Origin: Gemmatimonadaceae bacterium | GTDB taxonomy: Bacteria; Gemmatimonadota; Gemmatimonadetes; Gemmatimonadales; Gemmatimonadaceae | Assembly: GCA_045803545.1 (NCBI GenBank) | Contig: JBJMOW010000005.1 | Location: 512,001-576,000 of the forward strand | Length of the DNA: 64,000 nt | Reading direction: 5' to 3' | Shown here: positions 848-36,581 of the stretch, in pieces | How the letters are laid out: every line of letters starts with the position of its first letter | Position numbering within the stretch: the first letter of the stretch is position 1 | Notes under the pieces: generated by a model | Databases searched by the model: none | Seen by the model: only the letters and a program-made list of their open reading frames with translations | What the model was told of the DNA's origin: nothing | Translations under genes and position numbers: made by a program

Positions 848-3800
848 CTAGTGCAGGAAGAGCACTGCCGGACCACTGAAGGGCGCGATCAGTTGTACGG
901 ATGGACCGCCCGCAATAGTTCCAGCCGGAGTCGCGACGCCCGTGGCGGGATTGAACCACTCCACGTTGAGCGTGCCGGTTAGTGCGGAAAGGTTGAGTGT
1001 CACCGCGCCTTCGCTATTGATATAGACGAGATACTGTTCGCCGGGCTTCGCCAACGCGTAGCCGGTCAACTCGGATAGAACCAGATCGCCGTGAGGTACC
1101 GCATTGGCCATGTCCATCCTCTGGGCGTAGCTCAATGTGTAGCCCATGTTCTTCCGAATGGCCTCCCAAACAGGATCGTTCACATCGTAGTCTTCCGCGC
1201 CGACGCCAATAGCTGCGCCGTCATAGCCGTCCATCAGGATCGGGTTGTGGCCCTTCACAAAACTCTTCCACACCCACTCGACATCTCCACAGACACCGCA
1301 GATGTGATCCGTATCCGTGACGAGCACTTTTGATCCATTCGCGGTTACGGGCGTGTGCAGGGTTCCGGCGATCGAGATCCAGTCGGCATCGCTGTTATAG
1401 AGATCCGTATCCGACCCGTTCGGCCACATCGCCGTCATGCCGACGGGGTGACGTTTTGCTTTTGTCGCTTCGTAGTCGCGGATCACCTGTATCATATGGT
1501 ATTGCCAGTCGCGGGATGACCCGTCGCTCTCGTTGCTGATCTCGTAGAGCACGTTGTCCAGATCACCGACTGCGTCGATGACTCTACGGACATAGGCTTC
1601 CTGCAGGGCGGTGACGGATGGAATAGTCAGCGTTTGACTTTCGAGTCCTGACCCGTCGCCATTCGTGTCACCGTCGATTCCGTTGATGTTGTTCGCTGAG
1701 TTGAATGGATGTCCATTCCATGGGTTGTTGGCGGTCGCCCCCGGCTTGGTCGTCACGCTCCAGCCGTTGAAGAGCATCACCGACACGTAGATTCCGCGCG
1801 ATCCTGCCTCGATGACGCGCTGACGCATCCTGTCGAAGTAGGCCTGATTGAACTGGCTAACGTCGAACTTAGGTTTGCCGTCGAGCGCTACCCCAGGACC
1901 GGTGCGCGCATACGCCGAAGGTGAGAACCAATAATCGTTGGCATACTCTGATGTCCACCTATCCTGTTCCCAAGCATAGAGCCGGAAGAAGTTGTGATTG
2001 CGCTGCGTCAGAAAATCGAGATAGGCTGTGTAGTTGAACGCGGCCGGCGGATCGACCGTGCCATTGTCGCGCAGCGTACTCCAGGTGTGCGAACCTGTCA
2101 GGTAAATGATCTGACCTGTTGCATTTTCGAAGTACCGAGGATTGCGCGTGCTTCGGTGAAGCAGAGTCGCCGTTGTCGTCGCAGCAGTGACTGTGACGAT
2201 AGACGTTCCTGTCTTTGTCTCACTCGTAGCAGTGATCGTCGCTGCTCCGGCTGCCACCGCCGTGACGAGCCCGGTCCCCGAAACGGTCGCTGCAGCGGTA
2301 TTATCGGAGCTCCACGTAACTACGCGGCCAGTGAGAACTCTGCCCTGAGCATCTTTGAGCGTGATTGTGAGTTGCTCTGTTGCACCGACGAGGATGCTCG
2401 GCGCCGAAGGACTGACTGTTACCGTTGCCACCGGCGCCTGGGTGACCGTGAGGGTTGCGCTTCCCGTTTGTCCTTCACTGGTCGCAGTGATGTGAGCCGT
2501 GCCTTCAGCGACCGCAGTCACGATACCGGTCGAGGAAACTGTAGCGATAGCGTGGTCGTCACTCGCCCATACAATCGTTCGGCCGGTAAGGACGCGGTTT
2601 CTGCTGTCTTTCAGCTCCGCAGTAGCCTGTGTCGAAGCGACGGCGGTGATCGAGCCTTGAGCTATCGTCACTGTCACCGAAGCTACGGGCGCCGCTGTCA
2701 CGGTGAGTATCGACGAGCCCGTCTGGCCCTCACTGGTTGCTGTGATGTGAGCCGTGCCTACGGCTTCAGCGGTAACGATTCCGGTGTTAGACACAGTGGC
2801 CACGCCTTCGTTGTCAGAAGACCAAACGACGGATCGACCCGTTAGCGTGCCACCCGTTGCATCCAGAGTCGTCGCGGTTGCTTGAGTTGTTCCAACGGCG
2901 CTGATCGACCCCTGCGCGAGTGAAACTGTGACTGAAGCAACCGGTACCTGAGTTACTGTAATCGATGAAGTCCCACTTACTCCCTCACTCGTTGCGGTAA
3001 TGGTCGCAGTGCCGGCTGTGTGCGCTGTAACGAGGCCGTTGGCATCCACCGTTGCCGAGGCATCGTTATTCGATGTCCAAACGACTGTTCTGCCAGTCAA
3101 TGGCCTGACCTGAGCGTCGGTGAGAGCGGTGGTGAGCTGCTGCGTTGCTCCTTCAACAAGATTGGCGCTCGCCGGGCTGACAACGACCGAAGCCACTGGA
3201 GCATCGGTGACAGTGAGCGTTGCGCTTCCAGTCTGTCCCTCGCTCGTCGCTGTGATGTGAGCTGTTCCCGTTGCAACGGCCGTGACTGCGCCCGCAGAGG
3301 AGACCGTCGCAGCTGCGGTATTGTCCGAGGTCCAAACGATCGAACGACCACTCAGCGTACGGCCCTTACTGTCTTGCAGGGTTGCAGTTGCCTGCGTTGT
3401 CCCGACTGCCGTAATCGAACTCGCCGCCAGTGAAACACTCACCGTTGCAACCGGCGCTTGAGTGACCGTGAGTGTTGCGCTGCCAGTCTTTCCTTCGCTC
3501 ATCGCGTTGATGTTTGCAGTTCCCACGGCGACCGCGGTCACGAGGCCGGTGTTAGCGTCGACAGTTGCAATGGCCAAGTTGTCAGAGCTCCACGTTACAG
3601 CGCGCCCAGTGAGATTGTTGCCATTAGCATCAAGCGTCGTTGCGTTTGCTTGCGAGGTACCCACGGCCGTAATGCTCATCGGGTTGAGCGCAACGTTCAC
3701 CGTCGCAACGGGGGCAAGGGTTACAGTGATCGCGGATGTTCCGCTCTGACCCTCGCTGGCGGCGGCGATAGTTGCCCCGCCTGCGGCTACGGCAGTCACC

Positions 3801-6800
3801 AATCCATCTGCGCCAACTGTCGCCACTGAGTTATTGCTGGAGCTCCAAGTGACTGTGCGACCGGTCAACACATTTCCGTTTGCATCTTTCGTGACGGCCG
3901 CGAGTTGTTGCGTCGGCGTAATACCGAGTACGAGACCCGCCGACGCAGGTGTCACGGTGACCGTTGCAACTGGAATCGGGTTGACGGTGATCGACGGCGT
4001 TGTCGCCGCTGGAGCTGTCTCACTCGTTGCAGTAATAGCGGCGGTACCAACACCGAGCGCCGTCACAGTAATTGTTGCGCCCGTTGAACTGCTTAGCGAG
4101 CTTGCCGCGCTCACGGTTAGAACTGCGCTATTGCTCGAGATCCAGTTAACGGTACGCCCGGGCAGAACATTGCCGTTCGCATCTTTGGGAGTCGCGATCA
4201 ACACCTGAGTGCTACCGACAGTCATCGGTGTACTTGCCGATGACAGCGTAACCGTCGTTACCGGTGCAACGGAGACGGTGATCGACGATGTGCCAGTTTT
4301 CGTCTCACTGGTCGCAGTGATAGTTGCAGTGCCAGCGGCCTGCGCTGCTACCAGTCCGTTGCCACCGACCGTCGCGACCGCGGTGTTGCTAGACGCCCAC
4401 GTCACGACCCGACCACTGAGCGTGTTTCCGTTGGTATCCTTAGTCACCGCCGTCAGTTGCTGAGTGGGTGTAATACCAAGCACCAAGCTCGCTGACGATG
4501 GCGTCACTGTTACTGTCGCCACTGGCGCGGGAGTGACAGTGATGGTCGCGCTGCCAGTTTGTCCCTCGCTGGTCCCTGTGATGCTCGCTGTACCGACTGC
4601 GCCAGCTGTTACAAAACCAGTGCTCGCATTAACGGTTACAACTGCAGTATTGCTCGAGCTCCAGGTGACAGCGCGCCCGGTCAGGACATTGCCGTTTGCA
4701 TCGCGGGTAGTAGCTGTGGCTTGAGAAGTTCCAACGGCAGTGATGCTCGCGGGATTCAACGCAACGGTTACGGTCGCAACCGGTGCGAGGTTAACAGTGA
4801 TCGAGCTTGTCCCGGTCTTACCCTCGCTAGTCGCTGTTACCGTCGCACTTCCAGCGCTGACAGCTGTAACCAAGCCATTCGCATCGACAGTAGCGACGGC
4901 AGTGTTGTTCGAGCTCCAGCTGACGACGCGACCAGTGAGAGTGTTCCCATTGGCATCTTGGGTAACTGCGGTCAGCTGCTGTGTCGGACTAATTCCGAGC
5001 ACCAAAGTGGCGCTGCTCGGCGTGGTTGTAACGGTGGCAACGGGAATCGGGTTGACCGTGATTGTTGGCGTCGTGGCTGCAGGTGCACTCTCACTGGTGG
5101 CAGTGATCGTGGCGGCGCCGACCCCGACAGATGTGACCGTAATAGTTGCTCCCGTTGCGCTACTTACGGAGCTCGCATTACTCACGGTGAGTACTGCAGG
5201 ATTGCTTGAGACCCAAGCCACTGTACGACCGGAAAGTGTATTGCCGTTTGCGTCCTTAGGCGTTGCCGTCAAAGTCTGAGTCGCGCTGACGATCATCGGC
5301 GTCGTCGGCGGGGAGAGCACGACAGTTGCTACTGGGGCTGGATTGACGGTGATCGAGCTCGTGCCCGTTTTCGTCTCACTGGTCGCCGTTATCGTGGTAG
5401 TTCCAGCGCTAACCGCGGTTACCAATCCATTCGCATCGACAGTAGCCACTGCGGTGTTACCGGAGCTCCACGTCACAAGGCGACCGGTGAGCACCGTACC
5501 GTTCACATCCTTGGGCACCGCCGTCAGTTGCTGCGTCGGAGTAACCACGAGCTGGAGCGTCGCTGACGCAGGCGTCACCGTCACGGTTGCAACAGGTGCA
5601 GGCGTAACCGTTAGAGTCGCACTGCCCGCCTGGCTTTCGCTCGTTCCCGTGATGCTCGCAGTGCCAACTGCGACGGCGGTCACGAGGCCGGTGTTGGAAT
5701 TCACTGTCGCAACAGCGGGGTTACTGGAGTTCCAGGTGACGACGCGCCCTGTGAGAATGATGCCATTCGCGTCCCGCGTTGTCGCTGTCGCCTGTGAGGT
5801 TCCAACAGCAGTGATGCTCGTCGGATTCAGTGTGACGGCGACAGTCGCAACGGGTGCGAGCGAAACCGTAATGGAAGCAGTGCCAGCCCTTCCTTCGCTC
5901 GTCGCGGTAATTGTGGCGCTACCGGCAGTCTGAGCCGTAACTAGGCCATTTGCGTCGACAGTTGCGACCGCGGTGTTGTTCGAGCTCCACGTGACGACGC
6001 GGCCGGTGAGAGTATTTCCATTGGCGTCTTTAGTCACAGCCGTCAGTTGCTGCGTGGGCGCGATTCCGAGTACGAGGCTGGCCGACGCCGGCGTGACCGC
6101 GACCGTTGCCACTGGAATCGGGTTGACACTGATACTCGGCGTTGTCGCCGCGGGAGCACTCTCGCTCGTCGCAGTAATAGTTGCAACGCCGACGCCGAGC
6201 GCGGTGATGGTGATGGTTGCGCCGCTCGCCGTGCTCAGGGACGTCGGCGCGCTGACAGTGAGCATTGCCGGATTGCTCGATACCCAAGTGACTGTCCGAC
6301 CCGACAGCGCGCTCCCGTTTGCGTCCCTCGGTGTAGCAGTCAGAACCTGAGTTCCCCCAACGATCATTGGCGTCGTCGGTGACGAGAGCGTTACGGCCGC
6401 CACGGGAGTCGGATTAACCGTGATCGAACTTGTTCCGGTCTTCGTTTCACTCGTAGCGGTTATTGTCGCCGTACCGGCGCCGACTGCGGTGGCCAGGCCG
6501 TTTGCATCAACTTGGGCCACTGCTGTGTTGCTCGAGCTCCAGGTAACCAAGCGCCCAGTAAGCGTGTTGCCGTTCGCATCCTTGGTGACTGCCGTCAGTT
6601 GGTGTGTCGGAGTGACGAGGAGCTGAAGCACCGCCGAGGAAGGCGAGACTACAACGGACGCGACCGGCGCCGGTGTCACGGTTAGCGTCGCACTGCCGCT
6701 CTTTCCTTCACTCGTAGCAGTGATGCTCGCAGTGCCCAGAGCAACCGCCGTGACCATGCCGGTGTTAACGTCGACTGTTGCAACAGCTGTATTGCTGGAG

Positions 6801-9800
6801 CTCCAGGTAATCGCGCGGCCAGTCAACACATTGCCGTTTGCGTCCCGCGTCACCGCTGTCGCTTGAGATGTTCCAACCGCCGTTATGCTCATTGGATTCA
6901 GTGACACGTCTACAGTCGTAACAGGTGCAACTGTGACGGTGATCGCAGATGTTCCGCTCTGACCCTCGCTTGAAGCGGTGATTGTTGCAGCGCCTGCGGC
7001 TACAGCCGTGACTAATCCATTCGCGCCAACTGTCGCTATTGAGTTATCGCTAGAGCTCCAGCTGACTGTGCGACCCGCCAGTACATTGCCGTTTGCGTCC
7101 TTGGCGACCGCTGCCAGCTGCTGCGTGGGTGTAATGCCGAGCACAAGGTTCGCTGATGACGGCGTTACTGTCACCGTCGCCACTGGCGCGAGGTTTACTG
7201 TGATCGTGCTCGTCCCAGTCTTGCCCTCGCTCGTGGCCGTTATGGTCGCACCGCCTGCACTCACCGCGGTCACGAGACCAGTATTTGGGTCGACTGTAGC
7301 GACAGCATTGTTGTTCGAGCTCCAAGTGACCACACGACCGGTCAAAGTGTTGCCGTTCGCATCCTTGGTGGCTGCTGTCAGTTGCTGTGTCGGAGTGATT
7401 CCGAGTACCAAAGTCGTGCTGCTCGGGGTAACTGTGACACCCGCAACCGAAGCCGCGGTGACGGTAAGAACCGCGCTGTCAGTCTCCCCTTCACTCGTCG
7501 CAGTGATGTTGGCTGTGCCTGGTGCAATGGCTGTCACGAGACCGGTGTTAGGGTCGACCGTTGCAATTGCTGTGTTGCTCGAGCTCCAGATTACGACGCG
7601 TCCAGTAAGTGGACGTCCCCTAGCGTCGAGCAGCATCGCCGTTGCCTGCGTCGTCTCAGTGGCGTTGATCGAGCTCGACGCCAGAGAAACTGTGACGGTT
7701 GCGACAGGAGCTTCCGTGACAGTGAGCGTCGCATTACCAGTCTTACCTTCGCTTGTTGCAGTCAGGGTGGTAGTACCAGGTGCGACTGCGGTCACCAGAC
7801 CACTATTGGGGTTAACCGTTGCGACGGCAGTATTGCTTGAAGTCCACGACACCACCCGTCCTGTCAGTGCGTTTCCGTTGCCATCGAATGTGCTCGCCGT
7901 TGCTTGCGACGTCTGTACTGCATTGATACTTGTCGGGTTCAGTGTAACTGTGACGGTTGCGACTGGCGCGAGAGCAACATTAATAGATGAGGTGCCTGAC
8001 TGACCTTCGCTGGTCGCCGTTATTGTTGCACTACCGGCGGCTACAGCACTGGCGAGCCCGCTGGCGTCGACATTGACGAAGTTCGTGTTGCTCGAACTCC
8101 AAGTGACCACGCGGCCGGTCAATACATTCCCCTGTGCGTCCTTGGTGACGGCGGTGAGTTGTTGCGTGGGCGTAATGCCCAACACGAGGTTCGCCGAAGG
8201 CGGCGTAAGGGTGACGCTGGCTACCGGCGCCGGTGTCACGGTCAGCGTCGCACTGTCGCTCTTTCCTTCACTCGTAGCAGTGATGCTCGCCGTGCCCGGA
8301 GCAACCGGTGCAATAAGACCCGTGATCGCGTCAACTGTCGCGACAGCGGTGTTAGTGGAACTCCACGTCACGACCCTGCCGGTCAAAACGTTGTTGTTAG
8401 CGTCAAGCGTTGTCGCCGTCGCCTGTGACGATCCGACTGCCGTAATGCTCGTCGGACTCAGCGCGACGGTCACTGTTGCGACGGGCGCAACCGACACAGT
8501 GATTGCAGATGTCCCGCTCTGCCCTTCACTCACGGCGGTGATTATGGCCGAGCCAGCAGCGACTCCCGTTACCAATCCATTCGCACTGACGCTCGCGGCA
8601 GCGGTATTGTTCGAGCTCCAGTTGACCGTTCGTCCGTTAAGGACGTTGCCGTTGGCATCTTTCGTTACAGCACTAAGCTGTTGAGTGGGTGTTATACCGA
8701 GGACCAGACTGGCCGATGGCGGCGTAACTGTGACTGTAGCAACGGGAACCGGGTTGACGGTGATCGAAGGTGTCGTTGCCGCCGGAGCAGCTTCGCTGTT
8801 GGCAGTGATCGTAGCTGTTCCGACCGCAGCTGCCGTCACGGTGATCGTCGCGCCACTTCCAGTGCTTACTGAGGCAGCAGCACTGACCGACAACACGGCT
8901 GGATTGCTTGAGACCCAGTTCACGGTCCGGCCAGACAAGATGTTGTTGTTCGCATCCTTCGGGACGGCTGTCAGCACTTGAGAACTTCCGACAATCATCG
9001 GAGTTGCCGGCGCAAAAAGCGTTAGCGTTGCGACCGGCGGAACGCTAACCGTGACCGATGATGTGCCGCTTTGAGCCTCGCTGGTGGCGGTAACCGTTGC
9101 AGAACCAGCGGCAACGCCGGTTACCAATCCACTAGTGTTGACCGTCGCAATCGCGGGGTTGCTCGAACTCCAAGTCACTGTGCGAGCGGGCAAGACGTTG
9201 CCGTTCGCGTCCTTCGTAACTGCCGAGAGTTGTTGTGTCGGAGTGATGCTCAATACCAGAGTCGTAGTCGCAGGCGTGACAGTGACCGTCGCAACTGGAA
9301 TCGGGTCGACGGCGATGCTCGGCGTTGTCGCCGCCGGTGCGGTCTCACTCGTGGCGGTGATCGTCGCCGTGCCGATACCAACTGCCGTAACAGTGATCGT
9401 CGCTCCGGTCGACGTACTAACCGAGGACGGTGCGCTCACGGAGAGCACCGCCGGATTACTTGAAATCCAGTTTACAGCGCGGCCAGAAAGGGCGTTCCCG
9501 TTTGCATCCTTGGGCGCGGCGGTCAGCACCTGAGTGTTGCCAAGGATCATTGGGGTCATTGGCGCCGACAGCGAAACAGTCGCGACCGGCGCCGCGTTGA
9601 CGGTTATCGAGCTCGTCCCGGTCTTTGTCTCACTCGTCGCAGTAATGGTCGCCGCGCCCACACCGACCGCGTTTACCAATCCGTTCGCATCGACAGTCGC
9701 GACGGCCGTATTGCTCGATCTCCAACTCGCTGCGCGACCAGCGAGAATGTTGCCATTGGCATCCTTTGTTACCGCGGTGAGCTGTTGTGTCGGTGTTGCG

Positions 9801-20119: not shown

Positions 20120-20133
20120 GCTCGATGGTTCAC

Positions 20134-21971: not shown

Positions 21972-22042
21972 CAAAACCGGCCGCAAGGTTTGCTTCACCG
22001 CGCTCGGAAACGTTGTCGTTCACAAGGGAGGCTGTACCACGA

Positions 22043-25235: not shown

Positions 25236-25888
25236 AGCCAGTCTCCATACCGCAGTCAACGGAACCTCTGAAGATTCTGTGTCTTGGAGCGCACTCCGAC
25301 GACATCGAGATCGGATGCGGGGCAACCTTGATCGAGCTCGCTGAGAGAAACCCACGCCCGGAGTTTCGCTGGGTGGTTTGGAGCGCGTGTGGAGATCGCG
25401 CGCGCGAAGCGGCGCTCGGCGCGCGCGCCTTTCTCTGGCCATCCTCGGAGGCGGAAGCCGAGTTCCACGGTTTTCGCGATGGCTATTTCCCGAGTCAGTT
25501 CGGCGAAATCAAAGACGCCTTTGAGGTGCTGGCTAGAGACTTTCGACCTGACGTGGTGTTCACCCATTACCGGGACGACCGTCATCAGGACCACCGGGTC
25601 ATCTCCGACCTGACATGGAACACCTTCAGAAATCACGTCATCCTTGAATATGAGATCCCGAAATGGGACGGGGACGTCGGACAGCCGAACTACTACATCC
25701 CGATCTGTCGGGAAATCGCCGAGCGGAAGATCACGTCGCTGATGAAAGTATTCCAGACACAGAGAAGCAAAGATTGGTTCAGTCCGGAAACGTTCACGTC
25801 CATACTTCGCTTGCGCGGAATCGAATCACGCGCCCGAGAGGGCTTTGCTGAAGCCTTCCACGCCAGAAAGCTCGTATCAACGCTTTAG
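25232..25888 (+). CDS. PIG-L family N-acetylhexosamine deacetylase
   Basis: GAHSDDIEIGCG, HQDH and YEIPKWDGD motifs. Confidence 0.88.
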   Translation: MKPVSIPQSTEPLKILCLGAHSDDIEIGCGATLIELAERNPRPEFRWVVWSACGDRAREAALGARAFLWPSSEAEAEFHGFRDGYFPSQFGEIKDAFEVLARDFRPDVVFTHYRDDRHQDHRVISDLTWNTFRNHVILEYEIPKWDGDVGQPNYYIPICREIAERKITSLMKVFQTQRSKDWFSPETFTSILRLRGIESRAREGFAEAFHARKLVSTL

Positions 25889-25935: not shown

Positions 25936-25943
25936 GGTATCGA

Positions 25944-27743: not shown

Positions 27744-27789
27744 GCGAACTCCCGCATTTCGTTCGTAGTGGTGGCGGAAGTGCCGTGAC

Positions 27790-27809
27790 AACAAAATGCC
27801 GCCGCGGCA
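27790..27809 (-). terminator. Riboswitch expression-platform terminator
   Basis: Minus strand TGCCG-CGG-CGGCA followed by TTTTGTT, between the aptamer and the start codon. Confidence 0.55.
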
Positions 27810-27826
27810 CCGATACCTGTCGGATT

Positions 27827-27910
27827 CGCTGGCGGCTCGGCTGGCGTAGCGTGAGCTTTAGCCCCGTGGCTCTGCGACACCGTCTTTCGACGGCTTTGCT
27901 CTGAGCAGCG
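27827..27910 (-). ncRNA. GEMM-I riboswitch (c-di-GMP-I class) with A at position 20, the c-AMP-GMP-type signature
   Basis: Minus strand CGCUG-CUCAG-A-GCAAA-GCCGUC-GAAA-GACGGU-GUC-GC-AGA-GCCACGG-GGCUAA-AGC-UCAC-GCU-AC-GCC-AG-CCG-AGCCG-C-CAGCG. It contains P1, P2 with GAAA tetraloop, and P3 with a tetraloop receptor and AG bulge. Confidence 0.85.
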
Positions 27911-28035: not shown

Positions 28036-29319
28036 TTAAGACTCAGAACCCGCTGTGCGGCCGCGAATTCGCACCCCATTAAAATCAGACCAATCATTCG
28101 TCGGCGTACCAAGCTGAAGAGAGGTAGCAACCGAATCGTCCAGCACTGCCCGGCTGTTGCTTTGGTGCGCACCAATTAGTTCAAGCGCCCCGAGTGCGCG
28201 CGCGCCATCGTGCGCGATGATCGCTAACGATCCCGGGATTGCACCCTGGCAGGCAAATCGCGCTGCGCGGGCAGGAATGCCCTCAGCGAGATGATGCTTC
28301 CATATCGGATGCTCACCGTCGAGCAGAGTGACTACATTCTTCCCCGCAAGAATGAGGTATGAGTACGCCAGTGCACCGAGACTTGTCGGAGCCCGCGTTG
28401 ACAGGAATTTCCTCAACTTTCCGGCTCTCCGGTAAAACGTCTGGACAAGGTTCTTTTCCCAGAGAAAACGATACGTGCTCTGGTCGTCCGGCTTAACGAC
28501 AAAGTCGTAATCGTTGTAGCTCGATACCAGGTCGAGAATTGTAACCTCGCGGTATCCAGCATCTTTGAATAGCTGGCGATACCCCGCAATGTCGTACAGG
28601 TATGTGCGATATGGTTTTCTTCGCAGAGCACGTGAAACCACGTTCGCCAGGGGTCGAGGAAGTGCTGGCACGAGTCGAATACCGGTGTGTGTATCGTCCA
28701 TACCGACCAGCGTCTCGAGCGCATAGCGATTCTCGATCGCGACAGCGATGGTTCCACCATCTGAAAGTGTGCGACCCACCTCCTTCAGCATGGAGACTTG
28801 TAGCTCCCGCGGCAGCCCTTCGGCATAGAGTGCCGCCCACTCGAGGACGCCGTTCATTGTCACCAGGTCGAACGCCGCACCTTTGAACGGAAGTGCAAAA
28901 CCGCCGGCCTCAACAAATCGGATGTCGTTGCGTTTGTCCTGCCGCGCGCGAAGACTGCCATACGAGACGCGAGTCCAGAGTGCGTCAACGCCGACGACGA
29001 AGCCGAAGTACTGGGAGAGGCCGAGTGCAAGCGCGCCGAATCCGCAACCCAGATCGAGCGCTTTGCTTTCGGCTGGAAGAGCGCGCAGCAGATGCCAGTT
29101 CCCAACGCGAAAGTTTCGCAACCGGTGCGCGAATTGTTTCCGTTTAATTGCGACTTCATCGAGGACCGGCTCCCAGCCCAGCTGCTTGCTGCGCTCGATG
29201 AATTCATTCAGCTGGGCAACCGGAAGGTCCCCGCCCCACCATTCGCCCTGCGCCTTCGCATCCGTGCGCGCGACGGTCGCGTTGTCGTCACTCACGGGTG
29301 GTGATGTGCGACAGCTCAA
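28036..29319 (-). CDS. Class I SAM-dependent methyltransferase
   Basis: LDLGCGFG, LPF...FDLVTMNGVLEW and AIENR motifs. Start (TTG 29319) is uncertain. Confidence 0.8.
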   Translation of the reverse strand: MSCRTSPPVSDDNATVARTDAKAQGEWWGGDLPVAQLNEFIERSKQLGWEPVLDEVAIKRKQFAHRLRNFRVGNWHLLRALPAESKALDLGCGFGALALGLSQYFGFVVGVDALWTRVSYGSLRARQDKRNDIRFVEAGGFALPFKGAAFDLVTMNGVLEWAALYAEGLPRELQVSMLKEVGRTLSDGGTIAVAIENRYALETLVGMDDTHTGIRLVPALPRPLANVVSRALRRKPYRTYLYDIAGYRQLFKDAGYREVTILDLVSSYNDYDFVVKPDDQSTYRFLWEKNLVQTFYRRAGKLRKFLSTRAPTSLGALAYSYLILAGKNVVTLLDGEHPIWKHHLAEGIPARAARFACQGAIPGSLAIIAHDGARALGALELIGAHQSNSRAVLDDSVATSLQLGTPTNDWSDFNGVRIRGRTAGSES

Positions 29320-29403
29320 TGCGCTCTGAGAGCGGAGTTAATTGGTTCGCAGTCATTTTTTTAAAGGAAACGGTGATCTAGGGCTTACAAAAACTGGCTT
29401 AGC

Positions 29404-30594
29404 TCACCCTTGAGCGCGAGCGGTGAAACGCCGAATGCGGCCACCGATGCGACCTGCGATTTCCGACATCGCTGGTACCGGATCAGACCACCGGAAGACG
29501 GGTTGATAGGCACCCGCCCATGAACGCGCCCACTCTGCCAACGTAATTCGACCTGCAGACAACTCAGCCCGGACTGCATCCAGATCGTAGTACGGAAATA
29601 CACAACGACGACCGACGCTGTAACCGGTGATTGTGGGAACCGGCTCGCCTAGAGCATCTCGCACCGCCATATCGCAAACATTCACCCCGCAACGCGCGGC
29701 GAATTCGACGTACCACCACGGCCGGGCGTTTACCTCGATCAGCTTCAGCACTCCATCGCGCGCATCGCGCTTGAACTCCGCGCTGAATATCCCACGATAA
29801 TGGAGGTCCGCGAACAATGTCCGCAGCGTTTGCGGGGCGCCATCGACCTCCGCAACCGGCACGCTCACCATAGCCGTGCTGTTACCGAAATCGGGCGGAT
29901 TCATGCGTAAACGACGGCGCGCGAACAGGGCTCTGGTATCACCGGCCCGATCAACGAATCCGTCGACGAAATAGTGATTCGTTGGTGGTCCCGGCACGTA
30001 CCGCTGCAGCAGCATCTCGAATCCCGCGGCAGTACAAGATGCGAACGTTGTTTCAGCGTTTTCTGCACCAGCGACCATAAAGGCCTTGACACCGAAATGG
30101 GCGAAAAACTGCTGGGAGTGCAACGGCTTGAGAAACGATTGGCTAAGGGTCTCAGCTGAGATTCCGCGCAGACCCTCACCGCGCGAAAGAAAATGTGTCT
30201 CGGGGTGCGGCAGTCCCAGTCGATCGAGCGTCGCGCCAAATCGTGCCTTGTCGACCAGCGTCTCAAGCGAATCCAGAGGTGCAACGCTCGATGGGTATTG
30301 CTCCTTGATATCGGCAGGTAGTGACGCGACCGCGCGTACCCATGAGTCGGAGCACGGCATTACTACCGTTCGCGCAGGCAGCGATTCAAGAAGCCGGGGC
30401 AGATTACCAGCGGTTGCGCCCGCAAATAGAGAAGGCGCCGATCGAAACCAGCGCGATCGCCGTGCCGGACCAATCGCGTCGGGCAAAGTCAGAGCGCGAA
30501 TACCGATGTCTGAGAGCGCCCGCAACACTCCCAACAAGGTGATGCCCGAACCAAGCGCCAGAACTTCTGGTCGCTTCAAAGCTCGCGATTTCAT
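29404..30594 (-). CDS. ATP-grasp carboxylate-amine ligase (D-aspartate ligase-like)
   Basis: LVDKARF, FLKP, LLQRYVPG and AEFKRDARDG.LKLIEVNARPW motifs. Confidence 0.82.
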   Translation of the reverse strand: MKSRALKRPEVLALGSGITLLGVLRALSDIGIRALTLPDAIGPARRSRWFRSAPSLFAGATAGNLPRLLESLPARTVVMPCSDSWVRAVASLPADIKEQYPSSVAPLDSLETLVDKARFGATLDRLGLPHPETHFLSRGEGLRGISAETLSQSFLKPLHSQQFFAHFGVKAFMVAGAENAETTFASCTAAGFEMLLQRYVPGPPTNHYFVDGFVDRAGDTRALFARRRLRMNPPDFGNSTAMVSVPVAEVDGAPQTLRTLFADLHYRGIFSAEFKRDARDGVLKLIEVNARPWWYVEFAARCGVNVCDMAVRDALGEPVPTITGYSVGRRCVFPYYDLDAVRAELSAGRITLAEWARSWAGAYQPVFRWSDPVPAMSEIAGRIGGRIRRFTARAQG

Positions 30595-30609
30595 TCGTCG
30601 GCTACCGCC

Positions 30610-31440
30610 TCACTCCTTGTCCAAGCGACGCGCCACGAGCTCGAATCCGAAGTGGTAGGGAGAAAGCAGCCAATTCGAGACCGTGATTCGGCGAAGTCGA
30701 TATGGGTCATCGCCCTTCCTTACTGTCCCACCGTAGGCGGACACACAGCAGCGCAACCCGAGCTCCTTCAGAATCGGCTGATTTTCTGCAGCCATGTTTT
30801 TCACACCACCGAACGGATAGGCGAACAGCCCTGAGTCTTCGCCCAGCTCGGCGAGGAGGCGCTTCATCCCGCCGCCGATTTCTCGTCGGGCGTCGTCGCC
30901 GACGGTCGAACCAAGGTTTACATGAGACACCGTGTGCGAGCCAATCTCATGACCGGCCGCGCGAAGTTGCCGGACTTGGTCCCACGTCATCCACTCGCTC
31001 TCGATGTTCTGATTGCGGTCCCACCACGGCACGTACGTGCTGCCAATAAACGAGGTGGTTACGAAGAAACAAGCCCGCAAGCCGTGCTCTTCAAGGATCG
31101 GCGCAGCGCGTGTCGCGTTGCCCTGATACCCATCATCGAATGTGATTACAAGAGTGCGGGTGAGATCGCCGCCAGACTCGAGGCGGTTGAGCAGCTCTGT
31201 TAACGACAGCACTTCGAAGTATCGGGCGAAGAAGCGAACGTAGGCTTCAAACACCGTGCTGCTACAAGTAATCGGGTCGTGCGGATACGCGTCGTTGACG
31301 CGGTGGAAAACAACGATGACCGCCTCGTTTTTCCACAGTCGTCGGTAGAAATGGCTGGCGAAAAGCGCCCAGCCCACCGCTCCTTTGACTTGACGAGATA
31401 CCCAGCTTAGAGGTTGTCGAATCTTTAAGCGCTTACGCAT
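30610..31440 (-). CDS. Polysaccharide deacetylase (CE4/NodB family)
   Basis: ITFDDGY, EIGSHTVSH and FAYPFG motifs. Confidence 0.9.
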   Translation of the reverse strand: MRKRLKIRQPLSWVSRQVKGAVGWALFASHFYRRLWKNEAVIVVFHRVNDAYPHDPITCSSTVFEAYVRFFARYFEVLSLTELLNRLESGGDLTRTLVITFDDGYQGNATRAAPILEEHGLRACFFVTTSFIGSTYVPWWDRNQNIESEWMTWDQVRQLRAAGHEIGSHTVSHVNLGSTVGDDARREIGGGMKRLLAELGEDSGLFAYPFGGVKNMAAENQPILKELGLRCCVSAYGGTVRKGDDPYRLRRITVSNWLLSPYHFGFELVARRLDKE

Positions 31441-31976
31441 TAAGCAATCGTACGTATCGGACGAGCAGCGACGGGCGTTGAGATATTTTTTCCCTTAAAA
31501 AAAAATTGCGACCGAGTGCGATAGTCGCGGTAACAGCGTTTTAGCTGCCCAAAAATATGCCCTATGTAGCCCTCCAACAGGGACAGTCTGGTGGCCGGGC
31601 TCGCAACCTGTCAGAATCCTGACATCTCGGCGGGCCTTCCCGGCGATCCTCAACTCACGACTCACGTTCTTTTTCGGGAACGTGTTTGGGAGAGCGTGGG
31701 AACCGTCCACACACCGGGGCAACTACTGACCTCTGTGGGTCAACTACCACAGACTTGGGGCAACACCGCGACAAACACCCGAATGCGAAACCGCAGACCC
31801 TTTGTTGAAAAGGCGCAAACCGCTATCCCCGTTCACCTTAGCAAACGCTGCCGGCCATGCGCAGGGGGAATGGAAGATGCTTCCCCGCGTGGTCAACTGC
31901 GCGGAGGCGGCACAAAGACGCCGACATGCACCCGCCGCATAACGGGCTAACCCGCCCGGAGGCCCACGAGACCGTG

Positions 31977-33092
31977 ATGTCGACAGCGTACGAACTTCTC
32001 CGCGAAGAGTTGCGGTCGCACCCTCGAGTATGGGTGGTTACGGGTGTCGCGGGGTTCATTGGATCTAACCTGCTGCAGGAGCTTTTGGCCCTGGGGCAAA
32101 CTGTCGTCGGATTGGACAACTTTTCAACGGGTCATCGGGCGAACCTCGACGATGCACTCGTTGGACCGCTCGAGGGTTCGGCCAATTTCAGGATGTTAGA
32201 AGGCGACATTCGCGACGTTCAGACTTGTCGGGACGCGTGCGAGTCGGCGGATTATGTGCTTCACCACGCGGCGCTTGGATCGGTACCGTGGTCCATGGAC
32301 GATCCGCTACGCACGAATGCAGTCAACGTCGATGGCTTTGTAAATATGCTGGTCGCGGCAAAGGACGCCGGGGTGAGACGGTTCGTTTATGCATCTTCGA
32401 GTGCCGTCTATGGAGACACCCCGGCGTATCCTCAAATTGAACAGACATTGGGCCGGCCGTTGTCACCCTACGCCGCGAGCAAGAGCGCGAATGAAACGTA
32501 TGCGCTCGCGTTTGAAATGAGCTACGGGCTGCAGACGATCGGTTTGCGCTACTTCAACGTTTTCGGACGCCGGCAGGATCCCACTGGCGCTTATGCTGCG
32601 GTTATCCCGCGTTGGATCGCCGCCCTGCTGCGTGGCGAGCGGTGCCGTATTTTCGGTGACGGAGAAACCACCCGGGATTTCTGCTACATCGCGAATGTGG
32701 TTCAAGCCAATCTCCTCGCAGCGACTGCAGAGAAGGACGAGGCGACGTGCGACACCTATAACATCGCATGTGCCGAATCCGTGACGCTCAATCAGTTGTT
32801 CGCAATGATGCGCGACGGACTGGCAGATCGAGACGCGCGGTTCACCGATGCTCGACCACTATACGACGGTTTTCGTCCGGGTGACATCCGATTTTCTTGT
32901 GCATCAATTGACAAAGCGCGCAGCAAGCTCCGCTACTCGCCCACGCATGACGTCTCGTCGGGACTCGCCGACGCGCTTGACTGGTATGTCGAGAAGGCGG
33001 AGGCTTGGAATGCGGACGCAGTCTCGAGACGGAACGGGCACCTTCCGATCTCGACCGTAGGACAAATGCCGGCCCCCCAGGTTGCAGTATGA
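31977..33092 (+). CDS. UDP-N-acetylglucosamine 4-epimerase (WbpP/TviC-like SDR)
   Basis: GVAGFIGSNL, HHAALGSVP, YASSSAVYG, PLSPYAASK and LRYFNVFG.RQDP.GAYAAVIP motifs. GGAGG upstream of GTG 31974/ATG 31977. Confidence 0.88.
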   Translation: MSTAYELLREELRSHPRVWVVTGVAGFIGSNLLQELLALGQTVVGLDNFSTGHRANLDDALVGPLEGSANFRMLEGDIRDVQTCRDACESADYVLHHAALGSVPWSMDDPLRTNAVNVDGFVNMLVAAKDAGVRRFVYASSSAVYGDTPAYPQIEQTLGRPLSPYAASKSANETYALAFEMSYGLQTIGLRYFNVFGRRQDPTGAYAAVIPRWIAALLRGERCRIFGDGETTRDFCYIANVVQANLLAATAEKDEATCDTYNIACAESVTLNQLFAMMRDGLADRDARFTDARPLYDGFRPGDIRFSCASIDKARSKLRYSPTHDVSSGLADALDWYVEKAEAWNADAVSRRNGHLPISTVGQMPAPQVAV

Positions 33093-34024
33093 GTGACGGG
33101 CATCCGAAGCAGAATGCGCTGGTTGGATTCAGCGATGAATGGATGCGCCGTTCAATGGAGACGGTCTTTCAGGAAAAGGGGTATCAGGTAACGCGAACCG
33201 CCTCCGGTAAGGAGGCACTCCAGCTCGCTCGTAGTGGGCGATTCGATGTGATCATCCTCGACGAACGAATCGAGCAATTGGTCGCTATAGATGTCTGCAT
33301 CGCGTTGCGCGACGATCCGTTGTTCGATCACGCCACGCCCATCGTCATCGTTTCGTCCGCGCACTCCACGTTACCAAGTCGCAGCGCTGCCTATGCCGCT
33401 GGCGCCTGGGAATACTGCCATCAGCCCGTCGATGTCGACGCACTGTTTCTGAAACTGGCCACCTTCCTGCGCGCACGGCGCGAGCTCGCCGAACACCAGG
33501 CGAAGTCGCTCATGGACCCTGCCAGCGGGTTATACACCGATTTTGGACTGCACCAACTCGCGGAGCAACTTGAAGCGCGCGCTGTGCGTAACCACGAGCC
33601 GTTCGCATGCCTGGCGTTTGCATCCGTCTCCGGCGAAGGCGATGCGCCGGCGAACCGCGACACCGCGCGAACAAGCTTCCGGGACCTTGCGCATGCCGTC
33701 CGGGAACAGGCGCGCCGGTCAGATGTCATTGCGAAACGAGGCGAGTCGCGCCTTGCGGTTCTCGCACCGGGCACGGACGCCGCAGGTGCGCGCCATCTGG
33801 TCGCACGCTTACAGCGTGAGCTCGGGGACTCCGCGAAAGGCAGTAAGGGATCCGCGGTCCGCCTGCGCGCGGGATATTGCGCCGTTTCCGACCTCGCGGC
33901 CGCAAAGCTCGAGGTCACCGAACTAGTCCACCGCGCTGAGAGCGCCCTGGCCCAGGTGGGGGGCACTAACCAAGACAGCGTGCTCAGTTTTGACGACCTA
34001 TCCCCGGGAGAATCTCGACCTTAA
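33089..34024 (+). CDS. Atypical receiver domain plus degenerate GGDEF domain (RxxD retained)
   Basis: ATG overlaps the epimerase stop (ATGA). REC motifs DVIILD and AGAWEY..QP, then DPASGLY, and RRSD followed by GESRL in place of GGDEF. Confidence 0.82.
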   Translation: MSDGHPKQNALVGFSDEWMRRSMETVFQEKGYQVTRTASGKEALQLARSGRFDVIILDERIEQLVAIDVCIALRDDPLFDHATPIVIVSSAHSTLPSRSAAYAAGAWEYCHQPVDVDALFLKLATFLRARRELAEHQAKSLMDPASGLYTDFGLHQLAEQLEARAVRNHEPFACLAFASVSGEGDAPANRDTARTSFRDLAHAVREQARRSDVIAKRGESRLAVLAPGTDAAGARHLVARLQRELGDSAKGSKGSAVRLRAGYCAVSDLAAAKLEVTELVHRAESALAQVGGTNQDSVLSFDDLSPGESRP

Positions 34025-34179: not shown

Positions 34180-35349
34180 ATGGCGCAGATGGACCCCGCT
34201 GCAACAAAAACTGTCTCCGCAATGACTGATTATTCGGATTACGGACTTGGGTCCGGTCCGATCGAATCCGCCTCGCCAACACGTTCGGAAAGTGCCTCCC
34301 CTGCACCGGTGGGCGCCGCTTTCTCTCCTTCGGCGGCGAAACTCATCGGCGCGCTCAGGATCGCCGCCGATCGAACGGCAACGGCGATTGCACACGGTAC
34401 CAAGCAGACCCGACTCGAAGTACGTGAGCGGCTAACCGAAGTAATCTGCTGGCTTATCGGCAGCCTCCAAACACGCGAAGGCGCGAATAAAGTTCCGCCC
34501 GTTATCGCGCGCGAATATGTCTCGACGCTAAAGATCAATTTTCTTACCGAGTTGGCGACGACATCCGACCTCAACGCGAATGAGGTTGTGTCCACACTCA
34601 TCAAGCTCGACGAAGCGGAGGAAGCCTGGAAGCGCACTGACCGCGGCAAGTTCATCTCGCGTCTTACCGGCGCAGACTGCGCCGATGCGGTGGTGGCGAT
34701 TGCACATGACATTCGCTCACCTCTCGGCTCCATTCTGCTGCTCGTCGACTCGCTCCGACGCAGCGAACGAGTAGCGCCAAACCCTGTGCGCGAACGCCAG
34801 CTCGGCCTGATCTACGGGGCCGCTTTCGGTTTGAGCACGACGGTCTCGAATCTGATCGCGGCGGCGCGCGGAGACGGGCTGGTCCAGGGTAACCCGGCAC
34901 CTTTTTCCGTTAGCGAGATGATGCACTCTGTGAGTGACATTGTGCAGCCGATGTGCGAAGAAAAAGGCATTCCTCTCGGAATGGAATTCGTCGATCACGA
35001 CGCCCGCGTTGGATACGGGTCGGCGATTCAACAGGCACTGCTCAATCTGACCTCCAACGCGCTTCGTTATACCGACGCTGGAAGCGTAGCGATGGGTTGT
35101 TCCGAGGTCGCAGGAGATAGGGTTGAATTCTGGGTCGAAGACACTGGCCCGGGAATTCCCGACGACGTCCTCGAGCGCCTTTGCTACGGGTTCCCGCCCG
35201 AAGGCGTGAAGCTTCGGTTCTCGAGCGCAGGGCTCGGCTTGGCAATTGTTCGCACTTTGGTTGAGGCGATGGGTAGTTCGTTGCAGGTCGACAGCGGCGT
35301 GGAAGGCACCCGCTTCTCCTTTGTTCTGTCACTGCCCATCCTGCAGTAA
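34180..35349 (+). CDS. Soluble sensor histidine kinase (HisKA + HATPase_c) with an unrecognised N-terminal domain
   Basis: H-box AHDIRSPL, N-box NLTSNALRYT, G1 EDTGPGIP and G2 AGLGLAIV. No obvious TM helix. SD GGAG before ATG 34180. Confidence 0.85.
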   Translation: MAQMDPAATKTVSAMTDYSDYGLGSGPIESASPTRSESASPAPVGAAFSPSAAKLIGALRIAADRTATAIAHGTKQTRLEVRERLTEVICWLIGSLQTREGANKVPPVIAREYVSTLKINFLTELATTSDLNANEVVSTLIKLDEAEEAWKRTDRGKFISRLTGADCADAVVAIAHDIRSPLGSILLLVDSLRRSERVAPNPVRERQLGLIYGAAFGLSTTVSNLIAAARGDGLVQGNPAPFSVSEMMHSVSDIVQPMCEEKGIPLGMEFVDHDARVGYGSAIQQALLNLTSNALRYTDAGSVAMGCSEVAGDRVEFWVEDTGPGIPDDVLERLCYGFPPEGVKLRFSSAGLGLAIVRTLVEAMGSSLQVDSGVEGTRFSFVLSLPILQ

Positions 35350-35410: not shown

Positions 35411-35484
35411 TATCCGGGCCCGTCTTACAGTCGTCATCCTATAGACCCCAGCGAGCCTGCCCAGCCTTGTGTTGGACGGGCTCG

Positions 35485-35583
35485 CTCCTCCGAAAACCGG
35501 CAAAACCACCGAAAGGTGGTGACCGCAAAGCCGCGACGCTAAAGCGCCCAAGGCGCCACGCGAGTCGGGCTACCGAAGAGGAG
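35485..35583 (+). ncRNA. c-di-GMP-I (GEMM-I) riboswitch, G20/A47/C92 type, with P1 extension covering the RBS
   Basis: CUCCUC-CG-AAAACC-G-GCAAA-ACCACC-GAAA-GGUGGU-GACC-GC-AAAGCCGCGAC-GCUAAA-GCGCC-CAA-GGCGC-CACGC-GA-GUCGGGCU-ACCG-AA-GAGGAG. The ATG follows 5 nt later. Confidence 0.85.
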
Positions 35584-35588
35584 GTTCA

Positions 35589-36530
35589 ATGCAGTTGCTC
35601 GGTGAACGTCCGCCGCTGGCATTGGTCGCCTGTAGCGATGACTGGATGAGCAGAGCGCTGGAGAATGTATTCCAGCTGCGCGGGTACGTGGTTGCGCATA
35701 CACGCTCCAGCATGCAAGCCCTCGAGCTCGCGCGACTGGCCAATCATGACCTGCTCGTACTCGACGAATCGCTATCCGACATTCCCGCGCTCGAATTGTG
35801 TCGCGCAATTAAGGACAGCGCGCAATACGATCATTCGATCCCGGTAGTGATCACCGCTTCTACGCCCGCTGATCCCAGATCACGCATGATGGCTTACAGC
35901 GCTGGAGCCTGGGAATACTGCAGTCATCCCGTTGATCTCGATCCCGTTTTCACGAAGGTCGCAACCTTCCTCCGCGCACGCGGCGAATTGGTTCTTTCGC
36001 GAAGCCAGGATTTCGTCGACTCCAGCACCGGGCTTTACACGAAGTTTGGATTGCGTCAACTCGCCGGAAAGCTCAGCGCACGCGCGCAGCGAAACCACGA
36101 AGCGTTCGCCTGCGTCGCATTCGCACCGCAAGTGCAGGATCGCGAGGTGGGCTCGAGTATGTTGTGGAAGGAAAGCTCCGCTGGCTTCGCCGATGTCGCA
36201 CACGTCTTCCGCGAGCAAAGTCGCCAGTCCGATATCGTTGGGCTGGTCGGAGACTCCCGACTCGCCATTCTGGCTCCCGATACAGACGCCGCCGGCGCGC
36301 GATTGCTCGTCGCCAGACTGCAGCGCGAGCTAGATCACGCTGCTCGCGCCAAGACTATCTCGGGTCAGGTTCGTCTGCGAGTAGGCTACTCGGCGGTTCA
36401 AGACCTTGCCGAATCCAAAGTCAATGTCGCCGAGCTGGTGCACCGCGCCGAGAGTGCGCTCGATCACGCGCCGCTCCAGGGCGAGAACTCGGCGGTCGTC
36501 AGCTTCGATGATTTGCCGATCTTTGAGTGA
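35589..36530 (+). CDS. Atypical receiver domain plus degenerate GGDEF domain (paralogue of 33089-34024)
   Basis: DLLVLD, AGAWEYCSHP, DSSTGLY, and RQSD followed by GDSRL. Clearly similar to the upstream paralogue. Confidence 0.85.
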   Translation: MQLLGERPPLALVACSDDWMSRALENVFQLRGYVVAHTRSSMQALELARLANHDLLVLDESLSDIPALELCRAIKDSAQYDHSIPVVITASTPADPRSRMMAYSAGAWEYCSHPVDLDPVFTKVATFLRARGELVLSRSQDFVDSSTGLYTKFGLRQLAGKLSARAQRNHEAFACVAFAPQVQDREVGSSMLWKESSAGFADVAHVFREQSRQSDIVGLVGDSRLAILAPDTDAAGARLLVARLQRELDHAARAKTISGQVRLRVGYSAVQDLAESKVNVAELVHRAESALDHAPLQGENSAVVSFDDLPIFE

Positions 36531-36545
36531 GGCATCGGCGTCGGC

Positions 36546-36581
36546 AAAAAAAGGCAACGGTTATAACCGTTGCCTTTTTTT
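36546..36581. terminator. Bidirectional intrinsic terminator
   Basis: Perfect 36-bp palindrome AAAAAAAGGCAACGGTTA|TAACCGTTGCCTTTTTTT between the convergent REC-GGDEF gene and the tRNA. Confidence 0.85.

Follow-up and report, generated by a model that had tools for sequence, protein, structure and literature searches.

How might a polysaccharide locus use two riboswitch types that differ at the base deciding between cyclic dinucleotides, and what would it gain by placing them ahead of surface proteins that could cut a glycan? This question is raised by a 64,000-nucleotide stretch of the genome of a Gemmatimonadaceae bacterium (assembly GCA_045803545.1, contig JBJMOW010000005.1, positions 512,001 to 576,000; hereafter the window). 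An initial annotation had described in it a block of about 36 kb with Wzm/Wzt export, sugar-tailoring enzymes, three lipoproteins on stalks of Big_2 immunoglobulin-like (Ig) repeats, two GEMM-I riboswitches, two receiver (REC)-GGDEF proteins and a soluble kinase, and all of these parts are indeed present where it placed them (Table 1). With moderate confidence, we read the region as a surface-polysaccharide locus whose stalked proteins likely trim or release the glycan and are predicted to be switched in opposite directions by cyclic dinucleotides, in this organism most likely by two thresholds of cyclic di-GMP (c-di-GMP). The observations behind this reading are the gene set, its linkage, two fixed switch types and their differing expression platforms.

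The window corresponds to C4:512001-576000 of the source genome, here termed G000 (3.70 Mb in six contigs, 93% complete), whose closest named homologs belong to Gemmatimonadaceae. The contents described initially are real, but the extent is not, because the block forms the right half of a unit of about 72 kb (C4:476851-548530), with about 36 kb more to the left. This left half adds a sigma-54 response regulator, Wzc, a Wza-like protein, a WbaP-like protein, several enzymes of the glycosyltransferase (GT) families GT2 and GT4, an O-antigen-ligase/Wzy-like protein, FemAB, an XrtA-type deacetylase, VanZ, RfbF and an epimerase. It also contains a third GEMM-I switch (G20 type, C4:491874, 74.7 bits) ahead of a 626-aa PL14-like protein with four Big_2 repeats, as well as a 1114-aa protein with five repeats and a DUF6298 tip. 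The full locus comprises five Ig-stalk lipoproteins and three of the five GEMM-I switches of G000. Its initiating transferase (PF02397), Wzz/CbiA, SLBB and PF04932 matches, which represent parts of a Wzy-dependent pathway, all lie above cut-off, as do the deacetylase (TIGR03006, 308; cut-off 276) and FemAB (TIGR03019, 286; cut-off 260); the naming of Wza rests on a TIGR03027 score under cut-off. RfbF and the epimerase (C4:505550-508466) are partners of the C-methyltransferase cassette inside the window, and together with this methyltransferase, RfbC, DUF4910 and PIG-L they suggest the synthesis of a branched-chain sugar.

The same association recurs in relatives, as judged from a sample of 80 chosen genomes in which close kin are not independent. 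A dead REC-GGDEF protein was detected in 42 and Wzc in 44 of them. Among the 28 genomes outside the genus of G000 that have both, the two genes lie at most 500 bp apart in 21, at most 3 kb apart in 23 and at most 50 kb apart in 25, with the remaining 3 having them on separate contigs. Within the genus (39 genomes, many of them fragmented assemblies), both were found in 8, the receptor alone in 4, Wzc alone in 2 and neither in 25. In 19 contiguous genomes, 15 of the 21 A20-type switches and 8 of the 15 G20-type switches are found no more than 60 kb from wzc or the receptor gene (rough chance expectations, 1.1 and 0.7, respectively), and this linkage is seen across several families. One congener, G089, mirrors the locus nearly gene for gene on two contigs, with the break falling within the large Ig gene, and the loci of other families hold the kinase, the sigma-54 regulator, Wzc, the receptor and the Wza-like and WbaP-like proteins together, with switch-led Ig genes nearby. 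Thus, the synteny proposed as a check in the initial annotation is borne out, since across families the polysaccharide core is accompanied by the receptor, the switches and the genes for Ig-stalk proteins, and the locus is a coherent, recurrent cyclic-dinucleotide-linked polysaccharide system across the phylum.

The two switches of the window both exceed the RF01051 gathering score of 35 and carry the A and the G originally reported at position 20 (Table 1), which is the equivalent of G20 in the Vc2 riboswitch (numbering as in PMC6140456). They represent two fixed types. GEMM-I matches occur in 48 of 61 genomes, and a pattern leaving positions 20 and 48 both free returned 123 matches from 80 genomes, comprising 52 A20/G48 and 71 G20/A48 copies without any mixed form (A20 paired with G48 in 52/52, G20 with A48 in 71/71 cases); beyond this set, there are a few G20/G48 copies and one A20/A48 copy. 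A GTDB scan with G48 fixed yielded at least 124 loci, and among the matches listed for 80 named loci, A20 was present in 45/45 copies from Gemmatimonadota and 19/19 from Nitrospirota. In the A20/G48 subclass, the junction is invariably CUCAG, and the P1 stem shows exchanges of C-G/U-A and G-C/U-A. Its strict pattern is found in 44 of 401 genomes of the phylum, of which 37 belong to family f2; it overlooks copies that have a GAGA loop or a U-A pair, so that the switch-negative sets hold false negatives. In G000, G089, G014 and G021, the A20 switch precedes orthologous Ig-PL14-like genes, and G002, G011 and G009 have an A20 switch with a compensatory C-G to U-A pair, located before the same gene in G002 and at contig ends in G011 and G009. 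All seven genus copies keep A20, G48, P1 and an overlapping terminator. This conservation, together with the compensatory pair in three members, indicates that the switch is under selection, and its orthology in seven congeners rules out a one-off mutation or a recent lone import.

The expression platforms of the two types differ systematically. In a set of 153 distinct cores, collected mostly via the G48 scan, a terminator-like hairpin built on the 3' strand of the aptamer was found for 79/109 A20/G48 copies (4.0 in shuffled sequences) versus 3/38 G20/A48 copies, whereas a Shine-Dalgarno (SD) sequence lies within 22 nt in 35/38 G20/A48 versus 6/109 A20/G48 copies. Of the A20 leaders that have a U-tract, 68 of 71 use the ligand-side strand for pairing with downstream sequence in the free fold, as expected for ON-type behaviour, and when the bound fold was forced on 42 G20 leaders, SD accessibility went down in 18 and up in 1. 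These models predict that A20/G48 acts as a transcriptional ON switch via the terminator and G20/A48 as a translational OFF switch at the ribosome site. The window copies fit this division in their architecture: the 5' arm of the terminator behind the A20 aptamer is the aptamer's own 3' strand (GCCGCC, including the C92/C93 equivalents), a structure of which a generic terminator scan picked up only a small internal hairpin, and the SD of the G20 leader, GAGGAGG at 35578-35584, has its anti-SD in a 5' arm. G20 copies keep the equivalents of G20, A47 and C92. The A20 switch leads the three-repeat PL14-like gene, and the G20 switch of the window leads receptor no. 2, a position it also has in relatives from the genus. 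Both types can also share a leader. Ten leaders from five genomes of two genera, each upstream of an Ig gene, have A20/G48 first and G20/A48 180-196 nt after it, and one genome has the reversed order with G20/A48 first. As a separate observation, G039 carries a run of three A20/G48 switches, spaced by 157 nt, upstream of an Ig gene (L286:1985-2400).

The proteins behind and around these switches combine Ig stalks with two kinds of tip. Pfam and a repeat hidden Markov model built from the locus agree on the 1, 3 and 43 Big_2 repeats counted initially. Since the units of the 43-repeat array are at most 78% identical at the DNA level (median 52%), we reject the idea that the array is an over-expansion produced by the assembly. 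A Big_2 repeat spans about 4 nm, so that this stalk could reach about 170 nm. The notion of stalks of graded length is not supported, however, because repeat number varies freely among orthologs, the glycoside hydrolase (GH)-like tip was detected in only 5 of the 80 genomes, and the 1-, 3- and 43-repeat stalks bear two unrelated tip types and hence do not form one graded series; stalk length is a variable spacer without a conserved ladder. Homologs of the GH-like tip protein with Big_2 stalks range from about 500 to 2715 aa (searched up to 2745 aa). The lipobox of the three-repeat protein (LWVC), judged by eye, is weak.

That the tips are carbohydrate-active was a better guess, as the models show glycosidase-like and lyase-like folds. 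For the DUF6298 (GH-like) tip, alignment-based folding gave a model with a pLDDT of 96.1 (single-sequence folding, 33.7), whose best structural match is the GH140 enzyme 8T9W (Z 28.4, rmsd 2.9 over 364 residues, 12% identity), and phmmer found no hits for the tip of the 43-repeat protein among PDB sequences. The residues N217, E218, D289, D291 and H292 are invariant in 80/80 rows of the alignment, and the N-E and D-T-D-H residues are kept in all three GH-like tips of G000, suggesting that these domains are active enzymes. They sit on 1-, 5- and 43-repeat stalks, all within the locus, and the one-repeat form adjoins wzm/wzt in G000, G089 and G039. Because the nearest fold is that of an apiosidase and the gene adjoins the sugar cassette in G089 and G015, one may speculate that this tip cuts at the branched-chain sugar. 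No switch was found ahead of the GH-type genes; the switches precede the PL14-like tips with three and four repeats. The PL14-like tip reaches an Atlas TM score of 0.69 to a PF21294 cluster, in a comparison between predicted models, and an E value of 0.16 against the lyase vAL-1, and weak lyase Pfam matches occur in 6 of 11 Ig-type proteins from the loci of relatives. Orthologs of the three-repeat protein (707-813 aa) lie behind the same switch and have tips that are 76-79% identical, and PL14-like Ig genes recur within the locus in several families. From this linkage, we infer that the tips would act on the cell's own glycan.

The initial annotation had also assigned to the locus two REC proteins with dead GGDEF sites but intact RxxD motifs, and this description stands, with RRSD and RQSD kept and GESRL and GDSRL in place of GGDEF. 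Among 32 homologs, down to 27% identity, RxxD is present in 32/32 (one having undetermined letters behind it) and the catalytic motif in 0/32. Receiver domains are likewise present, as proposed, but the conserved Lys is replaced by Gln and His; the phospho-acceptor-type Asp occurs in 28/32 and the Lys in 0/32 homologs, and the proteins are not canonical response regulators. We take the position of this Lys to be the one indicated by the GA.DYL.KP pattern. H, N and G boxes are all found in the kinase, and on the Kyte-Doolittle scale none of its 19-residue windows exceeds 1.6, consistent with its description as soluble. In eight mapped relatives it adjoins the sigma-54 response regulator, which is therefore its likelier partner, and a role as activator of the two REC proteins was rejected given this neighbourhood and their missing Lys. 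A motif scan of the locus found no sigma-54 site. The comparison with Pel, finally, is apt for the receptor but not for export, which relies on Wzc/Wza plus an ATP-binding cassette (ABC) transporter: from the Pel synthase set, an NCBIfam scan of all 51 proteins returned only a PelF-like GT4 match (39 bits; cut-off 100).

Taken together, these features can be assembled into a working model. WbaP-like, glycosyltransferase and ligase/polymerase-like enzymes would build the glycan, and Wzm/Wzt and Wzc/Wza would export it, while the sigma-54 regulator would receive its signal from the soluble kinase. The dead REC-GGDEF proteins may bind c-di-GMP at RxxD and relay this signal to the locus machinery. 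Binding of c-di-GMP to G20/A48 would close the ribosome site and thereby turn off receptor no. 2 and the four-repeat PL14-like protein, whereas ligand binding to A20/G48 would block the terminator and turn on the three-repeat PL14-like protein. If A20/G48 answers to higher c-di-GMP levels in this genus, the two lyase-like surface proteins would replace one another in stages.

Several observations weigh against this model. Both modelled states of the G20 leader in the window sequester the SD (accessibility 0.02 free, 0.00 bound), so that OFF behaviour of this copy is a class-level prediction only. The two other GEMM-I switches of G000, both of the G20 type (C2:1160275-1160365 and C3:111116-111208; L007 and L006), precede genes for a GH6 lipoprotein and for an M15 peptidase, and an unlinked Ig lipoprotein (C5:98639-100141), whose tip is 85% identical to that of the 626-aa protein, has no Rfam switch ahead of it. 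With two of five switches outside the locus and a switchless paralog, the regulon may comprise secreted enzymes generally. Profile scores of the tips are low: the GH-like tip reaches 17.2 bits for PF13204 (cut-off 26.5) and the 626-aa protein 24.3 for PF21294 (cut-off 27), a family without a match in the three-repeat protein of the window. RxxD is a weak marker on its own, as it is also found in 28/30 canonical GGDEF domains of the carrier genomes. No Wzx flippase was found among the membrane-rich genes or family matches of the locus, to which the search was confined. Moreover, with the genome 93% complete, a synthase for a second messenger may lie in its unassembled part.

This last point leads to the ligand of the A20/G48 switch, which the initial annotation had suggested to be a second messenger alongside c-di-GMP. 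An A at the G20-equivalent position is the determinant for cyclic GMP-AMP (cGAMP) and defines GEMM-Ib (PMC6140456, PMC6456294, PMC9481103), and this base is found at 27900 in the window. Yet binding by Vc2 G20A was at 53 nM for c-di-GMP and at 120 nM for cGAMP, with the wild type showing a picomolar dissociation constant for c-di-GMP (PMC6140456), and A20 RNAs are often bispecific (PMC6140456, PMC9481103). cGAMP synthases of the Hypr type are marked by Ser/Thr at position 348 plus GGDE[F/Y] (PMC6456294) and HD-GYP proteins of this pathway by Rxx(Q/N) (bioRxiv 10.1101/600031). In G000, all intact GGDEF domains have Asp at the specificity site, with no match to the Ser/Thr pattern, and neither SMODS nor DAC proteins nor Rxx(Q/N) HD-GYP proteins were found; the seven motif candidates read by eye were six RxxR and one RxxS. 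A GGDDF protein considered as a counterpart of the synthase GSU1937 has Asp rather than the Ser of the latter (PMC8835794). Asp is also present in 24/24 GGDEF domains read from five congeners (30 loci fetched of 48 matches), and the Asn-type GGDEF is found in 0/14 genomes of the genus, G000 included. Given the lack of a recognisable cGAMP synthase or phosphodiesterase, two messengers are unsupported in G000, and in its genus the likelier ligand is c-di-GMP at higher levels, read by bispecific binding in a two-threshold scheme. For relatives in f2, 3',3'-cGAMP is likely, judging from their Ser-type GGDEFs and mixed tandems. The Ser-type pattern occurs in 26/44 switch-positive versus 10/80 switch-negative genomes, after leaving out the out-of-frame or non-Ser matches in G264 and G439 (and G468 among unranked genomes) and the chance rows of G166, G169, G161, G127 and G150 (G166, G169 and G264 checked by script, the others judged from the printed letters). 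Within f2 it is present in 25/37 versus 9/50 genomes (p 5e-6), and it is found in 9/15 Nitrospirota carriers and in all five genomes with A20-then-G20 tandems. A membrane GGDEF family of f2 (L197-L214, L216-L220 and L222; MASE1 confirmed in two) has this Ser, and its Ser-type members are candidate cGAMP synthases, although not linked to the locus where checked (G099). A bolder reading, with somewhat less than even odds, is a circuit in Gemmatimonadota, and also in Nitrospirota, in which non-Asp GGDEFs, including those with MASE1, feed A20/G48 to turn on the stalked, polysaccharide-cutting lipoproteins, and c-di-GMP turns off their paralogs and a Wzc-linked receptor, in a "cGAMP AND NOT c-di-GMP" logic for shedding of the cell's own matrix, with a synthase of unknown type in G000.

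A stricter version, in which A20/G48 is cGAMP-selective in G000 as well and the switches read "cGAMP on, c-di-GMP off", would require an unassembled or unrecognised synthase or imported cGAMP, and we consider it somewhat unlikely. It draws strength from the role of A20 as a specificity determinant, from the co-occurrence of Ser-type GGDEFs with the switch, from continued selection on the A20 switch in this genus and from the ten tandems, which would be self-cancelling if both aptamers read c-di-GMP, because the weaker binder opens the gene and the tighter one closes it. Against it stand the uniform Asp sites in G000 and its congeners, but also the fragility of the Ser association, which drops to 8/15 versus 6/23 when counted by genera (p 0.17), the origin of the five tandem genomes from two genera, and the Asn-type GGDEF (L343-L362), which occurs in 39/44 f2 genomes regardless of the switch and in 0/15 f1 genomes. 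That the A20 switch of G000 has decayed since a cGAMP synthase was lost, and persists as a relic that regulates nothing, is highly improbable. The failure to find a synthase would fit this idea, as would the atypical GUC of the window copy, where 123 of 125 copies read GAC or GGC, and the GAGA loop of the G089 copy, the only one of its kind; however, seven copies keep the full set of aptamer and terminator features, with three compensatory double changes, and with a dead switch the terminator would form at all times and silence the gene, whose tip has nonetheless remained conserved. The function of the stalked proteins can be questioned independently of the ligand. They might act on foreign polysaccharide or as adhesins, the locus being a hotspot of surface genes under one lifestyle signal, a view that we regard as unlikely. 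The enzyme and peptidase genes behind switches outside the locus agree with it, as do the sub-threshold tip scores, the large size of the GH-like family (4540 representatives at E<=0.001 in many phyla and domain contexts), a third GH-like copy of G089 outside the locus, and the differing surroundings of the locus, which abuts a tRNA gene in G000 but lies beside other genes in G089, G014 and G021. The confinement of all three GH-like tips of G000 to the locus, the position of the one-repeat form next to wzm/wzt in three genomes and the recurrence of PL14-like Ig genes in the locus across several families argue instead for action on the locus product.

Each ingredient of the proposed system has a precedent: degenerate-GGDEF receptors of c-di-GMP are known in PelD of Pseudomonas aeruginosa and PopA of Caulobacter crescentus, locus-encoded lyases have been found before, and GEMM-Ib control of surface genes as well as tandem gates are described. 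PelD and PopA share with the receptors of G000 the dead catalytic motif and the kept RxxD, PelD in addition the link to a polysaccharide and PopA the receiver-GGDEF build; the proteins studied here differ in having a single pseudo-receiver, being soluble and being tied to the wzc gene of a Wzc/Wza locus without a Pel synthase set. Loci for exopolysaccharide of the XrtA/PEP-CTERM type (TIGR03006, TIGR03019, TIGR03087/8, PrsR-like) resemble the present one in the deacetylase and FemAB, which pass cut-offs, and in Wzc, the Wza-like protein, the sugar transferase, the ligase-like protein and the sigma-54 regulator, which are related but under cut-off. Exosortase (PF09721) had no matches, however, and a crude tail scan gave two unconvincing PEP-CTERM candidates, with lipoprotein Ig stalks being present instead; for want of an exosortase, we do not file the locus as a PEP-CTERM system. 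The GH-like tip shares the TIM barrel plus beta-sandwich of the GH140 apiosidases (BT1012, 8T9W; Z 27-28) at 12-13% identity, and it is Big_2-stalked in a biosynthetic rather than a catabolic locus, with a Pfam score under cut-off; the PL-like tip shares the jelly-roll fold of the PF21294 clusters with PL14 lyases such as vAL-1, its profile score again lying under cut-off.

The closest regulatory parallel is the pairing of GEMM-Ib switches with the Hypr GGDEF protein GacA in Geobacter (PMC6456294; PMC8835794), which is alike in A20, terminator-based ON control, tandems and surface or polysaccharide targets, and relatives of G000 likewise have Ser-site GGDEFs with a GGDEF motif. Differences are the fixed G48 and CUCAG junction, the opposite-sign G20 partner on paralogous lyase-like genes or in the same leader, and the candidate synthase, which is a MASE1-GGDEF protein in relatives and was not found in G000, in different phyla. 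With respect to Vc2 and RF01051, all three locus copies score above the gathering threshold, but one of them is A20/G48, and the G20 copies are predicted to act at a ribosome site and the A20 copy at a terminator. A leader that holds an ON and an OFF switch independent of each other works as an "A AND NOT B" gate, and an A-variant of a Desulfobacca c-di-GMP-I aptamer has gained affinity for cGAMP (PMC9481103); the part of Table 2 of that paper considered here has no c-AMP-GMP plus c-di-GMP-I pair, unlike the mixed tandems described here, and the part of PMC12452182 on tandem gates that was available does not mention the phylum. A literature search on Hypr or cGAMP GGDEFs in Gemmatimonadota, degenerate GGDEFs with Wzc, and Vc2 A48 with cGAMP, which did not extend to the supplements of the founding riboswitch papers, found no description. 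New here are the predicted regulation of two paralogous lyase-like genes in opposite directions and the survival of an A20 switch in a clade without a recognisable synthase. The A20/G48 subclass occurs in two phyla beyond Geobacter and the other Deltaproteobacteria in which cGAMP signalling via Hypr GGDEFs and GEMM-Ib has mainly been characterised, and it offers more than 100 natural aptamers for probing selectivity between cGAMP and c-di-GMP. In mixed ON/OFF tandems, nature would supply a logic gate for two dinucleotides. Through a dead REC-GGDEF protein fixed next to wzc, c-di-GMP could reach export of the Wzc/Wza type, and the tips of the DUF6298 and PL14-like kinds may represent new families that cut glycans, for which a first substrate suggests itself.

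Table 1. Features of the window discussed in the text (window coordinates).
Feature	Position	Strand	Basis or remark
157-aa hypothetical protein	309..782	+	no family; kept in the G089 locus, 54% identity
4355-aa lipoprotein: lipobox-like Cys20, ZU5-like N-terminal domain, 43 Big_2, DUF6298 GH-like tip plus beta-sandwich	848..13915	-	
549-aa lipoprotein: 1 Big_2 plus GH140-like TIM-barrel tip	14100..15749	-	profile, model
Wzt ABC ATPase plus Wzt_C	15760..16992	-	PF00005, PF14524 above cut-off
Wzm ABC permease	16993..17778	-	PF01061
GT2, polysaccharide pyruvyl transferase, class III aminotransferase	17775..21495	-	profile matches
Nucleoside diphosphate (NDP)-sugar C-methyltransferase, RfbC epimerase, DUF4910, PIG-L deacetylase	21968..25888	+	profile matches
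599-aa exported protein, probable lipoprotein: 3 Big_2 plus PL14-like jelly-roll tip	25944..27743	-	
Terminator-like hairpin, then U-rich tract	27789..27836	-	minimum-free-energy fold
GEMM-I aptamer, A20/G48 subclass (A at 27900, G at 27872)	27828..27910	-	Rfam RF01051, 57.1 bits
S-adenosylmethionine-dependent methyltransferase, ATP-grasp protein, polysaccharide deacetylase	28036..31440	-	Pfam
NDP-sugar epimerase, TviC-like	31857..33092	+	profile match, under equivalog cut-off
Pseudo-receiver plus dead GGDEF no. 1: RRSD, GESRL, Lys to Gln	33089..34024	+	
Soluble HisKA-HATPase kinase	34180..35349	+	profile matches
GEMM-I aptamer, G20/A48 (G at 35499)	35489-35577 (leader 35484..35588)	+	Rfam, 72.3 bits
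Pseudo-receiver plus dead GGDEF no. 2: RQSD, GDSRL, Lys to His	35589..36530	+	
tRNA-Ala(TGC), right locus boundary in G000	36609..36682	-	

Some further observations concern the surroundings of the switches and the locus. Nitrospirota carry A20/G48 before exported proteins (L042, L047, L050, L051, L067, L075, L081 and L085-L087, with further loci at L092, L095, L097, L105 and L107). G20 switches precede GH6- and M15-type genes in several relatives from the genus, and in nine relatives (L009-L014, L016, L017 and L022) they lead lipoproteins of about 493 aa, which we take to be subtilase-like with a propeptide. The RxxS protein of G000 is a stand-alone HD-GYP protein (C2:1143605-1144396). To the right of the tRNA gene, window positions 36733-43936 hold an alternative complex III operon (ActD, NrfD, molybdopterin/Fe-S protein, cytochrome c), which adjoins the locus in G030 too, but not in G089, G014 or G021. 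Just left of the locus lie two gene sets (C4:464090-466978 and 472018-474892), presumably prepilin-like from their GFTLIELL-type N-termini, one of which is also locus-adjacent in G014. Three soil metatranscriptomes contained 0.06-0.10 of the sequence words. Matching RNA contigs were short, shallow and mostly 90-95% alike; two studies yielded contigs that start at 35466 and 35470, a little before the G20 switch, which is no more than a weak hint.

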